Positions 2,552 to 56,050 of a DNA stretch of 64,000 bases are shown one piece after another; within the stretch, counting starts at the first letter, position 1, and the number at the start of each line of letters is the position of its first letter. A program made the translations under genes and the position numbers. The DNA is taken from the NCBI RefSeq assembly GCF_009931435.1, contig NZ_CP043414.1; one strand, written 5' to 3'. A model generated the notes under the pieces. It did no database searches. It was not told the DNA's origin and saw only the letters and a list, made by a program, of their open reading frames with translations. This stretch comes from Escherichia coli. GTDB taxonomy: Bacteria; Pseudomonadota; Gammaproteobacteria; Enterobacterales; Enterobacteriaceae.

Positions 2552-3916
2552 TTACGTGCAGATTTCGTAGCAAGGGATGTAGGCTGAGCCTGGCAACTTC
2601 ATACGATGCTGGGCAACAAAACCCTGTAGCAGGTCGTCCATACGACGCATAATCTCTTTATCGCCGTTGATTTTGTAAGGACCAAACTCTTCAATGGCGC
2701 GAATACCGACTTCTTTTACGTTACCCGCCACAATACCGGAGAACGCACGACGCAGATCAGCGGCCAAAACTTCTACTGGCTGATCCGGATACAGTTTCAG
2801 ATTAGCCATGTTCTCGTGAGACGGCTCAAACGGCATTTGCAGATCGGGCGCAATGCGCATTGACCAGTTAAAGCTGTAGGCATCGCCCGTATCGCGACGG
2901 TTTTCTTTCACCAGCGGCATCGATTTTTTCATCTGACGAGCGACTTCAGCGGCGTCATCAATGATGATGCGATAATGGCGTCGCGCGTTTTCTCCCAGCG
3001 TATGCACGACAAACTCGTCCAGTACGCGGAAGTAGTCTGCGCTCTCTTTCGGGCCGGTGAGGATCAATGGTAAAACCTGATCTTTGTTGGCCGGGTTCAT
3101 TAAAATTCCCAGCAAATACAGCAACTCTTCTGCCGTACCCACACCGCCAGGGAAGATAATGATACCGTGAGCGATACGGACAAACGCTTCCAGACGTTTT
3201 TCGATATCTGGCATGATGATCAATTCGTTGACCAGCGGGTTAGGCGGTTCAGCGGCGATAATCGACGGCTCTGTCATACCAATAAAACGACTGTCTTTGT
3301 AACGCTGCTGTGCGTGTCCGACCGCAGCACCTTTCATCGGCGCTTCCATCGCTCCCGGACCACAGCCGGTGCAGATATTCAGCTCACGCAGGCCCAGCTG
3401 ATTCCCGACGCGACGGGCATACAAATACTCGTTTTCGTTAATTGAGTGCCCGCCCCAGCAGACCACCATATTTGGCGCTTCACCGACATGCAGTGCGCGA
3501 GCGTTACGCAAGATGGAAAAGACCAGGTTAGTGATGTGGACGGAGTTGTCGAGATTCAGGTTGGGAAAACGAACGGTGTTATGGATTTGCCCGTAAACGA
3601 AGAGAATGTCACGCAGAACCGCGAACAAGTTGGCCTGCAAAGCGCGGATAATACGCCCATCGACAAAAGCTTCTTCCGGGGGATTAATCAGTTCCAGCTT
3701 TACGCCGCGTTCACGGCGCAGGACGTTAATATCGAAATTTTCAAAACGAGACAGCAATTCTTTGCTGTTATCGGTCAAACTACCGGAGTTCAGTACGGCA
3801 AGTGAACAGTTGCGAAACAGTTGATAGAGGTCGCTGCTGGCGGTGCGTTTAAGCATATCCACTTCCAGCTGCGACAACATATCCATGGAGCCAAGCGGGC
3901 TAATATGTGTAATCAA
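2552..3916 (-). CDS. ppnN: pyrimidine/purine nucleotide 5'-monophosphate nucleosidase (LOG-family, YgdH)
   Basis: 454-aa [28 protein letters not shown]..., recognised as the YgdH/PpnN family. Confidence 0.9.
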
Positions 3917-5699: not shown

Positions 5700-6066
5700 G
5701 TCGACAGGGAGTCAGACAACGAAGTGAACATCAGGATGATGACACTTCTGAAGGACACACCAGGAGGGTGTTTCAGGGAAAGGCTTCTGGATGAAGCGAA
5801 GAGGATGACGCAGGACGCGTTAAAGGACACCTCCAGGATGGAGAATGAGAACCGGTCAGGATGATTCGGTGGGTCAGGAAGGCCAAGGACACTTCAGGAT
5901 GAAGTATCATATCGGGGTGGTGTGAGCAGGAAGCAATAGTTCAGGATGAACGATTGGCCGCAAGGCCAGAGGAAAAGTTGTCAAGGATGAGCAGGGAGCA
6001 ACAAAAGTAGCTGGAATGCTGCGAAACGAACCGGGAGCACTGTGAATACAGTGCTCCCTTTTTTTA
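5700..6066 (+). ncRNA. csrB: CsrB small RNA (CsrA-sequestering)
   Basis: Starts GTCGACAGGGAGTCAGACAACGAAGTGAACATCAGGATGATGAC...; about 18-20 reiterated CAGGA(U/A)G / AGGA motifs across about 360 nt; ends in hairpin GGGAGCACTGTGAATACAGTGCTCCC plus T8 (6031-6066); no long ORF in the region. Confidence 0.93.
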
Positions 6067-6110
6067 TTCCTGCTATCCTTCGCGGCAGTTTTTCTTATTG
6101 AGGTTGCTTT

Positions 6111-28395: not shown

Positions 28396-29218
28396 GAGTT
28401 CCCCGCGCCAGCGGGGATAAACCGGCGGTAAAATTGTTGCTACCGTCTGGCCCTTGCGAGTTCCCCGCGCCAGCGGGGATAAACCGACGGTGCAGGATCT
28501 GTAATTCTTGCTCGCGATGAGTTCCCCGCGCCAGCGGGGATAAACCGAGTTATCAGGATTATTCCCGCTCCGCCGCCAGGAGTTCCCCGCGCCAGCGGGG
28601 ATAAACCGTCGTTTTTGTGGTGGGAGTGTGCGGATTGGTAGAGTTCCCCGCGCCAGCGGGGATAAACCGGCTGACATTGTCAGCTATAACCTTACAATGT
28701 GGAGTTCCCCGCGCCAGCGGGGATAAACCGACGTCCCGCTATTTCCTGGACAGTGTGTAGCGGAGTTCCCCGCGCCAGCGGGGATAAACCGGCGGCGCTA
28801 ACGTGATAATCACGATCAATTATGAGTTCCCCGCGCCAGCGGGGATAAACCGCGGGCGTTAACCTTTTTATAGGCATCTTCCTTGAGTTCCCCGCGCCAG
28901 CGGGGATAAACCGGCTTGCAGCAGCTGCGCCAACATCTGAATACGGAGTTCCCCGCGCCAGCGGGGATAAACCGCTTTTTCCCGTGACAAGATCCAGTTA
29001 ACTGTTGAGTTCCCCGCGCCAGCGGGGATAAACCGCATCACTGGACGCCCATTTGAATAACTCACAGGAGTTCCCCGCGCCAGCGGGGATAAACCGATTC
29101 AGCAAATAGCGAATTTCATAAATATGATGTGTTCCCCGCGCCAGCGGGGATAAACCGTACGTTAAACGCCATCTGTCATGGGTCGTCATGTGTTCCCCGC
29201 GCCAGCGGGGATAAACCA
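28396..29218 (+). CRISPR. type I-E CRISPR array: 14 repeats, 13 spacers (32-33 bp)
   Basis: 29-bp repeat GAGTTCCCCGCGCCAGCGGGGATAAACCG at 28396, 28458, 28519, 28580, 28641, 28702, 28763, 28824, 28885, 28946, 29007, 29068; last two repeats (29129, 29190) are GTGTT variants and the final one ends ...AAACCA. Confidence 0.97.
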
Positions 29219-44920: not shown

Positions 44921-45655
44921 ATGTCCAAACTCGATCTAAATGCCCTGAACGAACTGCCGAAGGTAGATCGCATTCTGGCGCTGGCGGAAACTAACGCCGA
45001 GCTTGAAAAACTGGATGCTGAAGGCCGTGTTGCCTGGGCGCTGGATAATCTGCCCGGTGAATATGTGCTTTCTTCCAGCTTCGGTATCCAGGCGGCGGTT
45101 AGTCTGCATCTGGTGAATCAGATTCGCCCGGATATTCCGGTGATCCTCACCGATACCGGTTATCTGTTTCCGGAAACCTACCGCTTTATTGACGAGTTAA
45201 CGGACAAACTCAAGCTCAACCTGAAAGTGTACCGCGCTACCGAAAGCGCCGCCTGGCAGGAAGCACGCTACGGCAAACTGTGGGAGCAGGGCGTTGAAGG
45301 CATTGAAAAGTACAACGATATCAACAAAGTCGAACCGATGAACCGGGCGCTGAAAGAACTGAACGCACAAACGTGGTTTGCTGGCCTGCGCCGTGAACAA
45401 TCCGGCAGCCGCGCTAATTTACCGGTGTTGGCAATTCAGCGTGGCGTATTTAAAGTGCTGCCGATTATCGACTGGGATAACCGAACTATTTATCAGTATC
45501 TGCAAAAACATGGCCTGAAATATCACCCATTATGGGACGAAGGATATTTATCGGTTGGTGATACCCATACAACCCGTAAATGGGAACCTGGTATGGCGGA
45601 AGAAGAAACGCGTTTCTTTGGCTTAAAAAGGGAATGTGGGCTGCACGAAGGGTAA
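44921..45655 (+). CDS. cysH: phosphoadenosine phosphosulfate (PAPS) reductase
   Basis: ORF track starts 44759; the ATG at 44921 with GAGGAA RBS gives [57 protein letters not shown]..., 244 aa. Confidence 0.95.
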
Positions 45656-45671
45656 ATATTGCCGGATAAAA

Positions 45672-45712
45672 TAAACGCCTCTGTCAGAAATGATGGGGGC
45701 GTTTTTATTTTG
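45672..45712 (+). terminator. cysH terminator-like hairpin
   Basis: AAACGCC...GGCGTTT stem followed by TTATTTT. Confidence 0.5.
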
Positions 45713-45918
45713 CGAGCCGCATTCCGGCATTTAAACATGAATATAGCAGGGGAAATCAACAGTTATAGAATGGCGTCGGGTGCTTGAGGCTGTCTGGCGT
45801 TGAGCATTCGCGAGGTTCCAGATGGACAAAAGCCCCGGGCGATATTTCTATCAACCTGAGGCTCGCGTTCGAACGTAGCAATTCGAATGTTAGTCTCTTC
45901 TTTGCAGGGAGGCAAGAC

Positions 45919-46071
45919 ATGCTGACAAAATATGCCCTTGTGGCAATCATCGTACTGTGTTGTACAGTACTGGGATTCACGCTGATGGTAGGCGACTCGT
46001 TGTGTGAGTTGAGTATCAGAGAACGTGGTATGGAGTTTAAGGCAGTTCTCGCTTACGAACCGAAGAAGTAG
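45919..46071 (+). CDS. Hok/Gef-family type I toxin (hok-like; position corresponds to the K-12 sokX locus)
   Basis: 50-aa [53 protein letters not shown] with GGGAGG RBS; N-terminal TM helix, conserved SLCE and AYE motifs; upstream GCTTGAGGCT element typical of hok mRNA 5' ends. Confidence 0.7.
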
Positions 46072-46139
46072 CCACCACGCGGGGGTAAAACCCCGCGTAT
46101 TGAATTGTGATGGTTTGGTCTCCTGCACCCTTTTTTTCA

Positions 46140-46309
46140 TTTATATTGTTTTTGTGAATATTATGCCTGTGTTTATTATTTATATATATCACAGATGAAA
46201 ATCATTGAATTATTCATAATGTAAATATTTTATTGAACGATATATATCACAGATAATTTTTAATATATGCGTAAATATCCTTTAAGTTTTACTGAAGGAT
46301 AAAAACATT
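46140..46309 (+). promoter_or_regulatory. AT-rich cas3 upstream region with 15-bp direct repeat
   Basis: ATATATATCACAGAT at 46182-46196 and 46240-46254 within a strongly AT-rich tract immediately upstream of the cas3 start. Confidence 0.45.
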
Positions 46310-48967
46310 GTGACTTTCTTTGATTTCTGGGGAAAAACCCGACGTGGCGAGAAAGAGGGTGGCGACGATTATCACCTTCTTTGCTGGCATTCGCTGGATG
46401 TAGCCGCGATAGGCTATTTAATGGTCAAAAACAACTGTTTCGGGCTGGCTGACTATTTTCGTCAATTAGGTTTCGCTGACACGGATCAGGCAGCACAATT
46501 TTTCGCCTGGTTGTTGTGCTGGCACGATACTGGAAAATTTGCCCGCTCATTTCAGCAACTTTACCTGCACCCACAACTCAAGGTTCCGGAAGGCGCAAGA
46601 AAGAATTACGAAAAGATCTCTCATTCAACGCTGGGTTACTGGTTGTGGCATCATTATTTAATTGAATGTGAAGAGTTGCTTCCTTCATCTTCACTCTCTT
46701 TGCGCAAACTTAAACGAGTAATAGATATGTGGATGCCCGTGACGACCGGGCATCATGGTCGGCCTCCTGACCGTATCGATGAACTGGACAACTTTCTGCC
46801 TGAAGACAAAGCTGCCGCACGGGATTTTCTCCTTGAAATCAAGGTACTGTTTCCGCTCATCGAGATCCCTACATTCTGGGATGATGACGAGGGCGTTGAA
46901 CTTATAAAACATTTTTCCTGGTATATCTCTGCAACCGTCGTACTCGCAGACTGGACGGGATCGTCAACGCGGTTTTTTCCACGCGTTGCACAGGCAATGG
47001 ATATTAAAGATTACTGGCAGAAGGCTTTAGTTCAGGCTCAAAACGCATTAACCGTCTTTCCCCCAAAAGCAGAAAGCGCGCCTTTCACTGGAATTAATAC
47101 GCTGTTTCCTTTTATTGAGAACCCAACACCGTTACAGCAAAAGGTGTTGGATCTGGATATCAGCCAGCCAGGACCACAGTTGTTTATTCTGGAAGATGTG
47201 ACTGGCGCAGGTAAAACAGAAGCGGCGCTTATCCTGGCGCACAGGTTGATGTCTGCGGGGAAAGCACAGGGTTTGTTTTTTGGCCTGCCAACAATGGCAA
47301 CGGCCAATGCCATGTACGATAGGCTGGTAAAAACCTGGCTTGCTTTCTATTCGCCACAATCCCGCCCCAGCCTGGTGCTGGCACACAGCGCTCGTTCGCT
47401 AATGGATCGCTTTAACGCATCGCTGTGGTCTGGTGATTTTGTGGGGTCAGAAGAACCGGATGAACAAGCGTTCAGTCAGGGATGTGCGGCCTGGTTTGCT
47501 GACAGTAACAAGAAGGCGTTGCTGGCTGAAATTGGCGTCGGCACGCTGGATCAGGCGATGATGGCGGTGATGCCGTTCAAACATAATAATCTGCGGCTTC
47601 TGGGGCTGAGTAACAAAATCCTGCTAGCCGATGAGATCCACGCCTGTGACGCTTATATGTCGTGCATTCTTGAAGGGCTGATCGAGCGGCAGGCGCGTGG
47701 CGGAAACAGCGTTATTTTGCTTTCTGCTACGTTGTCTCAACAGCAGCGTGACAAACTCGTCGCCGCCTTTGCGCGTGGTGCAGAGGGCCAGCAAGAAGCT
47801 CCGTTGCTGGAAAAAGATGATTATCCCTGGCTGACGCATGTCACGAAATCCGATGTGCATTCGCACCGGGTAGCGACGCGCAAAGACGTTGAGCGCAGCG
47901 TGAGTGTGGGTTGGCTTCATAGCGAACAAGAGTGTATTGCGCGTATCGAATCGGCGGTAAGTCAGGGGAAATGCATCGCCTGGATTCGGAATTCTGTCGA
48001 TGACGCCATCCAGGTTCATCGTCAGCTGCTTGCCCGCGGCGTCATTCCTGCTTCCAGCCTTTCACTTTTTCATAGCCGCTTTGCTTTCAGCGATCGCCAG
48101 CGAATTGAAACGGAGACGCTGGCACGCTTTGGTAAAGAAGACTGTTCACAGCGTGCCGGAAAAGTCCTCATTTGTACTCAGGTCCTGGAGCAGAGCGTCG
48201 ACTGCGACCTGGACGAAATGATTTCCGACCTTGCCCCTGTTGATTTACTGATCCAGCGAGCAGGGCGATTACAGCGACATATCCGCGATATTAATGGTCA
48301 GTTAAAGCGTGACGGTAAAGACGAGCGTCACCCTCCTGTATTGCTGATTCTGGCCCCCGTCTGGAACGACTCTCCGGGTGAAGAATGGTTTGGCTGTGCC
48401 ATGCGTAACAGTGCATTTGTCTATCCCGATCATGGGCGAATCTGGTTGACGCAGCGTGTGCTGCGTGAACAAGGCGCGATTCAGATGCCACACTCAGCCC
48501 GGCTTCTGATTGAATCAGTCTACGGTGAGGACGTGGTAATGCCGGAAGGGTTTGCCCGCAGCGAGCAGGAGCAAGTGGGCAAATACTACTGCGATCGTTC
48601 AATGGCTAATAAGTTTGTGCTGAACTTCAGGCCCGGCTATGCCGCCAATATCAACGATTACCTCCCGGAAAAACTGTCGACACGTCTGGCTGAAGAGTCT
48701 GTTTCCCTGTGGCTGGCTAGCTGTATTGGCGGTGTGGTGAAGCCTTATGCCACCGGTGCACACGCATGGGAAATGAGCGTTGTCAGAGTGCGCCAAAGCT
48801 GGTGGAAAAAACATCGGGATAAGTTTTCTTTACTGGAAGGGGATGCGTTCAGGCAGTGGTGCGTTGAACAGCGGCAAGATCCGGAGATGGCAAACGTGAT
48901 TTTGGTCACCGATGACGAAAGTTGTGGATATTCGGCTACGGAGGGATTGATTGGCAAGGTTGGTTGA
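46310..48967 (+). CDS. cas3: Cas3 HD-nuclease/helicase (type I-E)
   Basis: 885-aa ORF (GTG start, AAGGA RBS); HD motif ...LLCWHDTGKF..., Walker A VTGAGKTEA, DEIH box LLADEIHACD, then helicase C-terminal region. Confidence 0.93.
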   Translation: MTFFDFWGKTRRGEKEGGDDYHLLCWHSLDVAAIGYLMVKNNCFGLADYFRQLGFADTDQAAQFFAWLLCWHDTGKFARSFQQLYLHPQLKVPEGARKNYEKISHSTLGYWLWHHYLIECEELLPSSSLSLRKLKRVIDMWMPVTTGHHGRPPDRIDELDNFLPEDKAAARDFLLEIKVLFPLIEIPTFWDDDEGVELIKHFSWYISATVVLADWTGSSTRFFPRVAQAMDIKDYWQKALVQAQNALTVFPPKAESAPFTGINTLFPFIENPTPLQQKVLDLDISQPGPQLFILEDVTGAGKTEAALILAHRLMSAGKAQGLFFGLPTMATANAMYDRLVKTWLAFYSPQSRPSLVLAHSARSLMDRFNASLWSGDFVGSEEPDEQAFSQGCAAWFADSNKKALLAEIGVGTLDQAMMAVMPFKHNNLRLLGLSNKILLADEIHACDAYMSCILEGLIERQARGGNSVILLSATLSQQQRDKLVAAFARGAEGQQEAPLLEKDDYPWLTHVTKSDVHSHRVATRKDVERSVSVGWLHSEQECIARIESAVSQGKCIAWIRNSVDDAIQVHRQLLARGVIPASSLSLFHSRFAFSDRQRIETETLARFGKEDCSQRAGKVLICTQVLEQSVDCDLDEMISDLAPVDLLIQRAGRLQRHIRDINGQLKRDGKDERHPPVLLILAPVWNDSPGEEWFGCAMRNSAFVYPDHGRIWLTQRVLREQGAIQMPHSARLLIESVYGEDVVMPEGFARSEQEQVGKYYCDRSMANKFVLNFRPGYAANINDYLPEKLSTRLAEESVSLWLASCIGGVVKPYATGAHAWEMSVVRVRQSWWKKHRDKFSLLEGDAFRQWCVEQRQDPEMANVILVTDDESCGYSATEGLIGKVG

Positions 48968-54924: not shown

Positions 54925-56050
54925 GTGTTCCCCGCGCCAGCGGGGATAAACCGTGGATTATGACGCCAGAGAGCTTCCTGTTTGCGTGTTCCCCGCGCCA
55001 GCGGGGATAAACCGCTGGCTAATAACATCCCACTGAATATTATTTCGTGTTCCCCGCGCCAGCGGGGATAAACCGAGGTGTGGCATGCGGGGAATTATGA
55101 TCCGGTAGTGTTCCCCGCGCCAGCGGGGATAAACCGTGACAACGGCCGGCCGCTCTTTTTGCGGTCATGTGTTCCCCGCGCCAGCGGGGATAAACCGATC
55201 ATCGGCATCATCTCGTGATACTCATCCGGCGTGTTCCCCGCGCCAGCGGGGATAAACCGCCCAGGCTTTACGTGAGCTGGCGGATGTGGCCGTGTTCCCC
55301 GCGCCAGCGGGGATAAACCATACGGTCAAGCGATATCAGGGGTACTGTGTCGTGTTCCCCGCGCCAGCGGGGATAAACCGGGCGCCGCATCTTTATCGTA
55401 AAGCATGTAAAGGTGTTCCCCGCGCCAGCGGGGATAAACCGACCGCTCACACCCAGACAAGCGCCACTAACGTGTGTTCCCCGCGCCAGCGGGGATAAAC
55501 CGAACGCCGCATCAGCTAAATACGCTAAAAAAATGTGTTCCCCGCGCCAGCGGGGATAAACCGCGGCTGATACTCAGGAGCAGGCCAGAGAGCGTGTGTT
55601 CCCCGCGCCAGCGGGGATAAACCGTACCACCTGTGTATTGAGTTACGTCGCCGGGGGTGTTCCCCGCGCCAGCGGGGATAAACCGGAGCTTCATCGGTGG
55701 TTCTGGGAGCAACGGGAGTGTTCCCCGCGCCAGCGGGGATAAACCGGCACAAGTGACTACATCAAGGATGGGGAATGGGTGTTCCCCGCGCCAGCGGGGA
55801 TAAACCGATTAACATTGCAATTGAATTGACGCGTATGAGGTGTTCCCCGCGCCAGCGGGGATAAACCGCAGGCAGCACGGCGGGTTTTGCCCGGATATTT
55901 GTGTTCCCCGCGCCAGCGGGGATAAACCGCAAAACCAATAGGTGCTTTCCACATTGCAGAAGTGTTCCCCGCGCCAGCGGGGATAAACCGCTCTCGGTTC
56001 TGGGGTACTGTTACCCATAACTGAGCTCCCCCGCGTCAGCGGGGGAACTC
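54925..56050 (+). CRISPR. type I-E CRISPR array: 19 repeats (18 canonical plus degenerate terminal), 18 spacers
   Basis: 29-bp repeat GTGTTCCCCGCGCCAGCGGGGATAAACCG at 54925, 54986, 55047, 55108, 55169, 55231, 55292, 55352, 55413, 55474, 55535, 55596, 55657, 55718, 55779, 55840, 55901, 55962; terminal degenerate GAGCTCCCCCGCGTCAGCGGGGGAACTC (56023-56050); spacers 31-33 bp. Confidence 0.97.

Follow-up and report, generated by a model that had tools for sequence, protein, structure and literature searches.

The region between cysH and cas3 in the window, the 64,000-nucleotide stretch of Escherichia coli DNA that we analyzed, is most probably an uninterrupted chromosomal hokX/sokX type I toxin-antitoxin locus and a close paralog of hokE/sokE; we put the probability of this reading at roughly 85%. 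It is based on the family to which the encoded peptide belongs, the homology of the leader and of the antisense region, a set of conserved RNA helices, purifying selection and synteny. The ends of the hokX transcript, its 3′ processing, the action of Sok, toxicity and editing are predicted by analogy with other hok loci and are worded here as such. The locus itself is already known and is ordinary, and in the window it is intact. It has been named hokX/sokX in the cysH-iap region (PMC7232551), and the name also appears in PMC11598369. A "hok sok system" was described at the CRISPR-I locus of all strains but those with K-12-type cas-E2 (PMC3903273), and among uropathogenic E. coli (UPEC), 90% of strains were reported to have hok and sokX beside cysH (PMC12736100). 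No tie could be made between the "hokG" of PMC13017025 and the cysH-cas3 locus.

The locus is flanked by the cysH stop codon at 45655 and by the start of the cas3 ORF at 46310. The cysH gene has its own terminator hairpin at 45673-45704, and a weak match to ctRNA_p42d at 45671-45713 (30 bits, against a gathering threshold of 50) was rejected, as it corresponds to this hairpin. The initial annotation had proposed an intact Hok-family toxin gene between cysH and cas3, which is now corroborated by Pfam, PHROG, NCBIfam, Rfam and the RefSeq annotation. The elements it had listed, namely an ORF with a ribosome binding site, a 5′ element, a 3′ hairpin and a T-run, were all found where it had put them, to within a few bases. 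The hokX coding sequence spans 45919-46071 on the + strand, from an ATG at 45919 to a TAG ending at 46071, and encodes 50 amino acids plus the stop. It is preceded by a GGAGG Shine-Dalgarno (SD) sequence at 45908-45912, separated from the ATG by a 6-nt spacer. The copy in the window contains neither an IS element nor a frameshift, in contrast to two other E. coli copies (L021 and L022) and to hokA, hokC and hokE of K-12.

The peptide has the layout of the approximately 50-residue Hok/Gef proteins, with a hydrophobic N-terminal helix followed by the conserved C-terminal Cys and (A)Y/C-E positions; SLCE occupies residues 27-30 and AYE residues 45-47. Residues 5-46 of 50 match the complete Pfam model PF01848 (HOK_GEF, positions 1-42 of 42) with an E-value of 6.3e-10, and PHROG 251, "MokW-like host killing", is matched at 6e-12. 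At E ≤ 1e-3, 316 homologs with PF01848 were found. The best NCBIfam matches were the HokA equivalog NF007290 and the Hok subfamily NF007279, for neither of which the curated cut-off was reached (52.8 versus 89 bits and 36.2 versus 73 bits, respectively). As the score lies under the NF007290 cut-off, the peptide is not HokA, and at the same site in other genomes RefSeq names it only "Hok/Gef family protein". PADLOC defence models gave no match to the peptide. We also made the alignment with HokA-E and plasmid Hok that had been suggested as a check, and it places the peptide within the Hok family. Among the K-12 toxins, identity is highest to HokE (80%), followed by HokA (48%), HokD (40%), HokC (37%) and HokB (31%), and it is 45% to a Hok from an IncF plasmid. 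C14, T16, L28, C29, E30 and A45 are conserved in HokX, K-12 HokA-E and the plasmid Hok, while residue 46 is a Tyr encoded by TAC and followed by G, as in HokC, HokD and HokE. The window peptide is identical to WP_000956457.1, a RefSeq coding sequence in RMDEC465, and is one residue apart (P48S) from the common WP_000956458.1.

We then considered how the locus is distributed in E. coli. It had been stated in the initial annotation that only sokX is annotated at this position in K-12, and this is the case in MG1655, where the ncRNA sokX (b4701) is the only feature between cysH and cas3. The K-12 sequence can be aligned with the window as far as the start codon of hok, beyond which the two are unrelated, and therefore K-12 has kept the leader and sok while the ORF and the 3′ UTR are missing. 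The hokX leader is present in 5399 of 5426 complete E. coli genomes; in a sample of 60 evenly spaced rows of this leader search, 43 genomes (approximately 70%) have an annotated Hok. The best match to the 671-nt region among complete E. coli genomes was 98.5%. The window allele carries a Sok-target loop of the CGTAGCA type, which it has in common with O157:H7. In 11 further E. coli loci, similarity stops exactly after GCACCC(T)n regardless of the sequence that lies downstream, which may be cas3 in the same direction, cas3 in inverted orientation (L019), or iap without cas genes (L020). This common 3′ boundary in varied contexts delimits the module to 45778-46137. Insertions have reached the module in some strains: IS186/IS421 lies in the 3′ hairpin in L022, at the same spot that is used in hokE and hokC of K-12, and IS150 lies in the hokX leader in L021.

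Conservation of the ORF in close relatives, absence of which the initial annotation had named as grounds for dismissal, was observed both in E. coli loci and in other genera. The Hok of Atlantibacter is 84% identical and is encoded between cysH and iap, in a context devoid of CRISPR-Cas; here, too, homology stops directly behind GCACCC(T)n. Among the closest homologs from other genera, only this one is syntenic (cysH-hok-iap), the copies in C. rodentium, E. kobei and K. oxytoca being located elsewhere. The cysH-hok-iap arrangement without CRISPR-Cas indicates that the cysH-adjacent site is older than the cas cassette. The dN/dS ratio was 0.10 against the Atlantibacter ortholog, at a dS of 0.9-1.0, and ranged from 0.09 to 0.18 against other genera. 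These low values indicate that the HokX peptide is under purifying selection.

The leader and the rest of the predicted mRNA carry the elements that are known from hok transcripts. Rfam RF01794 (hok/sok) matches 45778-45934 on the + strand with 103.2 bits (gathering threshold 59, E = 8e-24). As this match lies on the mRNA-sense strand, it marks the hok leader and not the Sok strand; we rejected the latter assignment, since the match runs in sense from tac to the hok ATG, and took the ends of Sok from the K-12 annotation instead. The predicted full-length hokX mRNA is approximately 360 nt long (45778-46137, + strand) and extends over the conserved module from the 5′ end at tac to the T-run after fbi. 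Its putative -10 hexamer, TAGAAT at 45766-45771, was read by eye 6 nt before the GGGTGC 5′ end, and the -35 region is poor. A hexamer of the TA(G/T)(A/G)AT type is found shortly upstream of GGGTGC, at approximate spacing, in the E. coli alleles, Atlantibacter, K. oxytoca, hokE and hokC. A consensus scan returned no significant sigma-70 promoter and no local terminator for either hok or sok. Given that both promoters fall below the scan threshold, they are proposed from inspection by eye together with conservation.

The tac element, GGGTGCTTGAGGCT at 45778-45791, starts the RF01794 match, contains GCTTGAGGCT and is the 5′ partner of the fold-back helix, the 3′ partner being the fbi element, GGTCTCCTGCACCC at 46117-46130. 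The structure prediction that had been proposed for these elements was carried out: in the minimum free energy (MFE) fold of 45778-46137, the 5′ end pairs with 46117-46130. The tac-fbi duplex has an energy of -21.8 kcal/mol, which was reached by 1 of 500 shuffles, while the z-score of the whole-mRNA fold is only -2.4. A duplex between tac and the 3′ end was recovered in 15 loci from five genera (E. coli, Atlantibacter, E. kobei, K. oxytoca and C. rodentium). We used RNAalifold to obtain a consensus fold of 13 sequences from these loci, representing all five genera. This fold contains tac/fbi, a 5′ hairpin, the Sok-target hairpin, ucb/dcb, SD/anti-SD and the 3′ hairpin, as well as a hairpin at 45832-45862 that is complementary to the Sok terminator, and its layout is the architecture described for hok mRNAs. 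The ucb-like box, GTCTCTTCTTTG at 45893-45904, lies upstream of the hok SD and pairs in the consensus fold (columns 119-130 with 287-298) with the dcb-like box, CGAAGAAGTAGC at 46061-46072, at the end of the ORF. The SD region, GGAGGCAAGA at 45908-45917, is predicted to be sequestered by 46047-46056 (columns 135-143 with 273-282, the SD strand of the helix being 45909-45917). A GC-rich 3′ hairpin, CGCGGGGGTAAAACCCCGCG at 46078-46097 (CGCGGGG-GTAAAA-CCCCGCG), appears in both the MFE and consensus folds. The Sok-target hairpin at 45865-45890 follows the Rfam structure, and its loop, CGTAGCA in the window, is the polymorphic part of the locus.

Compensatory double changes were observed in 15 of the 107 pairs of the consensus fold, and four pairs of the Sok-target hairpin are kept through changes on both sides. 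The 12 pairs of tac/fbi are kept across the 13 sequences by one-sided changes (G-C to G-U and G-U to G-C), because tac is nearly invariant. The ucb/dcb and SD/anti-SD helices are present and almost invariant, an invariance that is uninformative either way. The module ends with a T7 run at 46131-46137, which is probably the 3′ end of the transcript or the U-tract of a terminator. The T-run has no stable local hairpin ahead of it (-3.7 kcal/mol, z = +0.8), which leaves the module without a canonical intrinsic terminator and makes read-through into cas3 conceivable.

The antisense RNA was mapped from K-12 sokX (b4701). The predicted SokX is 58 nt long and lies on the - strand, with its 5′ end at 45879 and its 3′ end near 45822. 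From 45874 to 45822, 50 of 53 bases are identical to K-12 sokX, and the six 5′ bases are allele-specific. The fold of SokX has a terminator stem, AGCCUCAGGUUGAUA/UAUCGCCCGGGGCU, followed by UUUU. The putative sok promoter at 45887-45915 (- strand) consists of a -35 TTGCCT (reverse complement of 45910-45915), a 17-nt spacer and a -10 TAACAT (reverse complement of 45887-45892), placing the putative +1 at 45879, 7 nt downstream of the -10. It agrees with the consensus at 8 of 12 positions, which is below the scan threshold. No E. coli allele, that of K-12 included, shows variation in this region, and SokX is detected in K-12. A cis-antisense RNA with its own promoter and terminator is predicted over the hok leader at the sequence level. 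The initial annotation was right in expecting an antisense RNA here; the interval that it gave, 45830-45920, has to be replaced by 45879 to 45822 for the RNA and 45887-45915 for its promoter.

The locus had further been suggested to be complete, which holds for the toxin, the hok mRNA elements and the Sok region but needs qualifying with regard to mok, as a canonical mok was not found in the window hokX leader. In E. kobei and K. oxytoca, an ATG in frame with hok and preceded by a GAGG SD opens a 67-aa Mok-Hok frame, whereas this codon is TCG in E. coli hokX, where it is accompanied by compensating changes in the hairpin. A possible substitute is a leader ORF at 45822-45878 (+ strand) that has an ATG, a GAGG SD at 45812-45815 and 18 codons up to a TAG at 45876-45878. 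In the window allele it thus stops early, inside the Sok-target loop and 40 nt before the hok ATG, and its ATG is absent outside E. coli. In the alleles with a CCCAAAC loop (roughly 70% of genomes), the leader ORF extends for 34 codons, and its TGA stop overlaps with the start codon of hok. The truncated class comprises roughly 20-30% of genomes and includes the window, O157:H7, Ec394 and ST38 types; this estimate relies on a count of 1623 among 5399 genomes in which the 82-mer of the window is matched at 95% identity or more. There is also a 12-codon mini-ORF at 45887-45925 (+ strand), whose TGA overlaps the hok ATG (ATGCTGA) and which, of the relatives examined, only Atlantibacter lacks. It is doubtful that this mini-ORF has a coding role. 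A mok start at its ATG (45887) was rejected as the main explanation, since an SD is missing and the codon overlaps both the sok -10 and a stem of the target hairpin. Being the reverse complement of the sok -10 hexamer, the ATG has a conservation that is sufficiently explained by that role. The coupling step is non-canonical in E. coli hokX and truncated in this allele, making the amount of Hok that is translated uncertain. It is possible, but on balance we think it rather unlikely, that in E. coli hokX the canonical in-frame mok has been replaced by a lineage-specific leader ORF that is cut by a stop in the Sok-target loop in about a quarter of strains, that Hok translation in these strains is uncoupled, being either silent or dependent on re-initiation at ATGCTGA, and that the tac-fbi helix and U7 form the only terminator before cas3. 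If true, either the replacement of mok or the tac-fbi/U7 terminator would amount to a small novelty in the way hok genes are regulated.

The locus may work in the manner of hok/sok on plasmid R1, as follows. A weak promoter with its -10 at 45766-45771 would give rise to the hok mRNA of 45778-46137, which the tac/fbi, ucb/dcb and SD/anti-SD helices would hold in a compact and untranslatable form until slow trimming of the 3′ end allowed it to refold. SokX would pair with the leader through the target hairpin, blocking leader translation and triggering cleavage of the duplex by RNase III. If Sok levels fell, the 50-aa Hok would be made, enter the inner membrane and depolarise the cell. HokE and 42 of 45 Hok homologs tested were reported as toxic on over-expression (10.1101/2025.08.07.668861).

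The hokX mRNA may also be subject to recoding. The TACG at Tyr46 (46054-46057, + strand) is a candidate site of A-to-I editing by TadA, which would change Tyr46 to Cys, and its context, GTTCTCGCTTACGAACCGAAGAAGTAGCC, is identical to that of the K-12 hokE site. TadA editing to a Cys codon was reported for 40% of hokE mRNA (PMC12214031, PMC5630033), and Tyr46 of hokX is probably recodable in the same way. The local folds of hokX and hokE both put UACG into the same 9-nt loop; the hokX stem has a z-score of about 0 relative to shuffled sequences. As the stem is no better than shuffled, the case for editing draws on sequence identity with hokE and not on structure, and on that ground editing of hokX at Tyr46 is a reasonable inference.

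Three other explanations of the region were weighed. That the ORF and hairpins resemble a hok locus by chance, within a non-coding spacer, is scarcely credible; the small size of the ORF and nothing more can be cited for it, and it is refuted by profile E-values of 1e-10 to 1e-24, by the 316 homologs, by the RefSeq annotation at the site and by conservation across genera. We give more thought to the possibility that the locus is a silent relic which inherited its RNA elements but has no present function, Hok being essentially never translated since the mok coupling was lost. That E. coli hokX has no canonical mok ATG in frame, and that a stop lies within the target loop in this allele class, including O157:H7, are both what one would expect of such a relic, as are the weak hok -35 and the low numbers of reads and ribosome footprints over the region in EHEC EDL933 (PMC5331693). 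The ORF has also been lost in K-12-type strains and IS elements have inserted in others, and chromosomal hok loci are reported as inactive in post-segregational killing in work cited in 10.1101/2025.08.07.668861, where Pedersen and Gerdes (1999) is the source given for hokA, hokB and hokC. However, a dN/dS of about 0.1 at a dS of about 1 relative to Atlantibacter is at odds with a gene that is never translated. The ORF is intact in 9 of the 9 further E. coli loci that retain it, every RNA helix is kept through compensatory or one-sided changes, and the editable TAC-G codon of Tyr46 is retained. We therefore regard a silent relic as unlikely, while giving it some weight.

Alternatively, the module may serve mainly to regulate or insulate cas3, either by read-through from hok or by convergent or antisense interference. 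Module and cas3 are oriented alike, the start of cas3 follows only approximately 170 nt further on, no stable local terminator hairpin lies ahead of the T-run, and the presence of hok sok correlates with cas-E1 and its absence with cas-E2 (PMC3903273). The same module with the same 3′ boundary is nevertheless found beside iap without cas genes (L020), beside an inverted cas3 (L019) and, in Atlantibacter, in the absence of CRISPR-Cas. This indicates that the position of the module follows cysH and not cas3. Moreover, the promoter of hok appears to be weak, the module closes with a conserved T7 that resembles a transcript end, and the peptide is matched by no PADLOC defence model. The comparative data argue against a dedicated link between hokX and cas3, and we consider this explanation very improbable.

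If the region is read as an intact hokX/sokX locus, the window has this locus in its ancestral and uninterrupted form, most of which is lost from the K-12 reference. The locus marks where, on the side of cysH, the exchangeable CRISPR-Cas I-E cassette ends, and its IS-free copy is a candidate for studies of chromosomal Hok, for instance on persistence or on disulfide control through TadA editing. Beyond correct annotation the finding matters little, and the polymorphism of mok and the lack of a local terminator are minor loose ends.

The locus resembles plasmid R1 hok/sok in its Hok-family peptide, in the predicted antisense RNA encoded in cis across the leader, in the tac/fbi and ucb/dcb pairs and in a sequestered SD, but it is chromosomal and lacks a long overlapping mok. 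Plasmid Hok-family peptides, in a comparison that excludes R1 Hok itself, are approximately 42-45% identical to HokX. A further difference is post-segregational killing, which is not known from chromosomal hok loci. In R1 hok, fbi precedes a separate terminator hairpin, whereas in the window the T-run comes directly after fbi. The K. oxytoca and E. kobei hok genes, annotated as "protein HokE", encode peptides with 84-92% identity to HokX and have the same RNA helices, but unlike E. coli hokX they possess the in-frame 67-aa Mok with a good SD; the K. oxytoca gene is near mutS, and that of E. kobei is a tandem pair. The closest named paralog is hokE/sokE of K-12, with 80% amino acid identity and the same leader architecture, and at the DNA level the hokE locus of one E. 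coli genome is approximately 79% identical over a megablast match of about 220 nt. K-12 hokE is located at another site (ybdK-entD) and has lost its 3′ end to IS186. Its leader ATG opens an ORF in frame with hok (83-aa forms), whereas the hokX leader ORF of the window stops early. Relative to hokX/sokX of other E. coli, the locus has the same position and orientation, and only allelic detail differs.

The most variable part of the hokX/sokX locus, when the window was compared with the RMDEC465 locus (L001) and the further loci L003 and L016-L023, is the loop (45874-45880) of the Sok-target hairpin in the mRNA leader (45865-45890). The 5′ end of the antisense RNA Sok comprises the same bases as this loop. 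At least four loop alleles were found in this set, represented by CGT-AGC, CCCAAAC (with two types of flank) and CCTAAGC, and they alter not only the length of the loop but also the frame of the leader ORF or its stop. In Enterobacter kobei, two near-identical hok/sok modules are arranged in tandem about 480 nt apart (2383-2742 and 2861-3220 in locus L010, and likewise in L011), with the Sok-target loop as the main difference between them.

For some E. coli hokX alleles, gene callers report "long Hok" products of 67 to 83 aa (P0006, P0009, and P0002), of which P0006 represents 424 contigs. In these forms either the leader ORF is joined in frame to hok or an upstream in-frame start is used. They may be real Mok-Hok fusions or, alternatively, artefacts arising from indels near the SD.

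Over the 671 nt of window positions 45650-46320, none of the complete E. coli genomes compared exceeded 98.5% identity, and most were 90-95% identical. The closest complete genome was that of RMDEC465. Because this region carries an O157-type loop allele within otherwise RMDEC465-like sequence, our data suggest a mosaic or a less-sampled lineage. Downstream of hokX, the annotation gives the cas3 gene of RMDEC465 (L001 2119-3672) as a pseudogene that carries a frameshift and an internal stop; the cas3 ORF of the window is open (46310-48967).

This cas3, starting at 46310, is the first gene of the cas operon, downstream of which lies the second of two type I-E CRISPR arrays (28458-28915 and 54925-55929), which have 61-nt periodicity and the repeats GAGTTCCCCGCGCCAGCGGGGATAAACCG and GTGTTCCCCGCGCCAGCGGGGATAAACCG. 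The window also contains a full-length CsrB sRNA gene on the plus strand (5709-6068; Rfam RF00018, 379.8 bits). An Rfam match to ctRNA_p42d on the plus strand at 45671-45713 was sub-threshold (30 bits vs. a gathering score of 50) and coincides with the intrinsic terminator hairpin of cysH; it most likely reflects a chance likeness between terminators.

Insertion sequences were found in several hok loci. In strain D6 (L021), IS150 lies within the hokX leader. The GC-rich 3′ hairpin is interrupted by IS186/IS421 at an identical position, between GGGG...CCC and ATAAGCGCTAACTTAAGGGTTG, in three different hok loci, namely those of E. coli VE-V11-M (L022), K-12 hokE (L005) and K-12 hokC (L006), at the equivalent of window positions 46078-46097. 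This position appears to be a hot spot for repeated insertion. The HokX Tyr46 codon, TAC followed by G (46054-46057), matches the TadA editing motif; the TAC-G is retained in 13 of 13 aligned relatives, and its sequence context is identical to that of the edited site in K-12 hokE.
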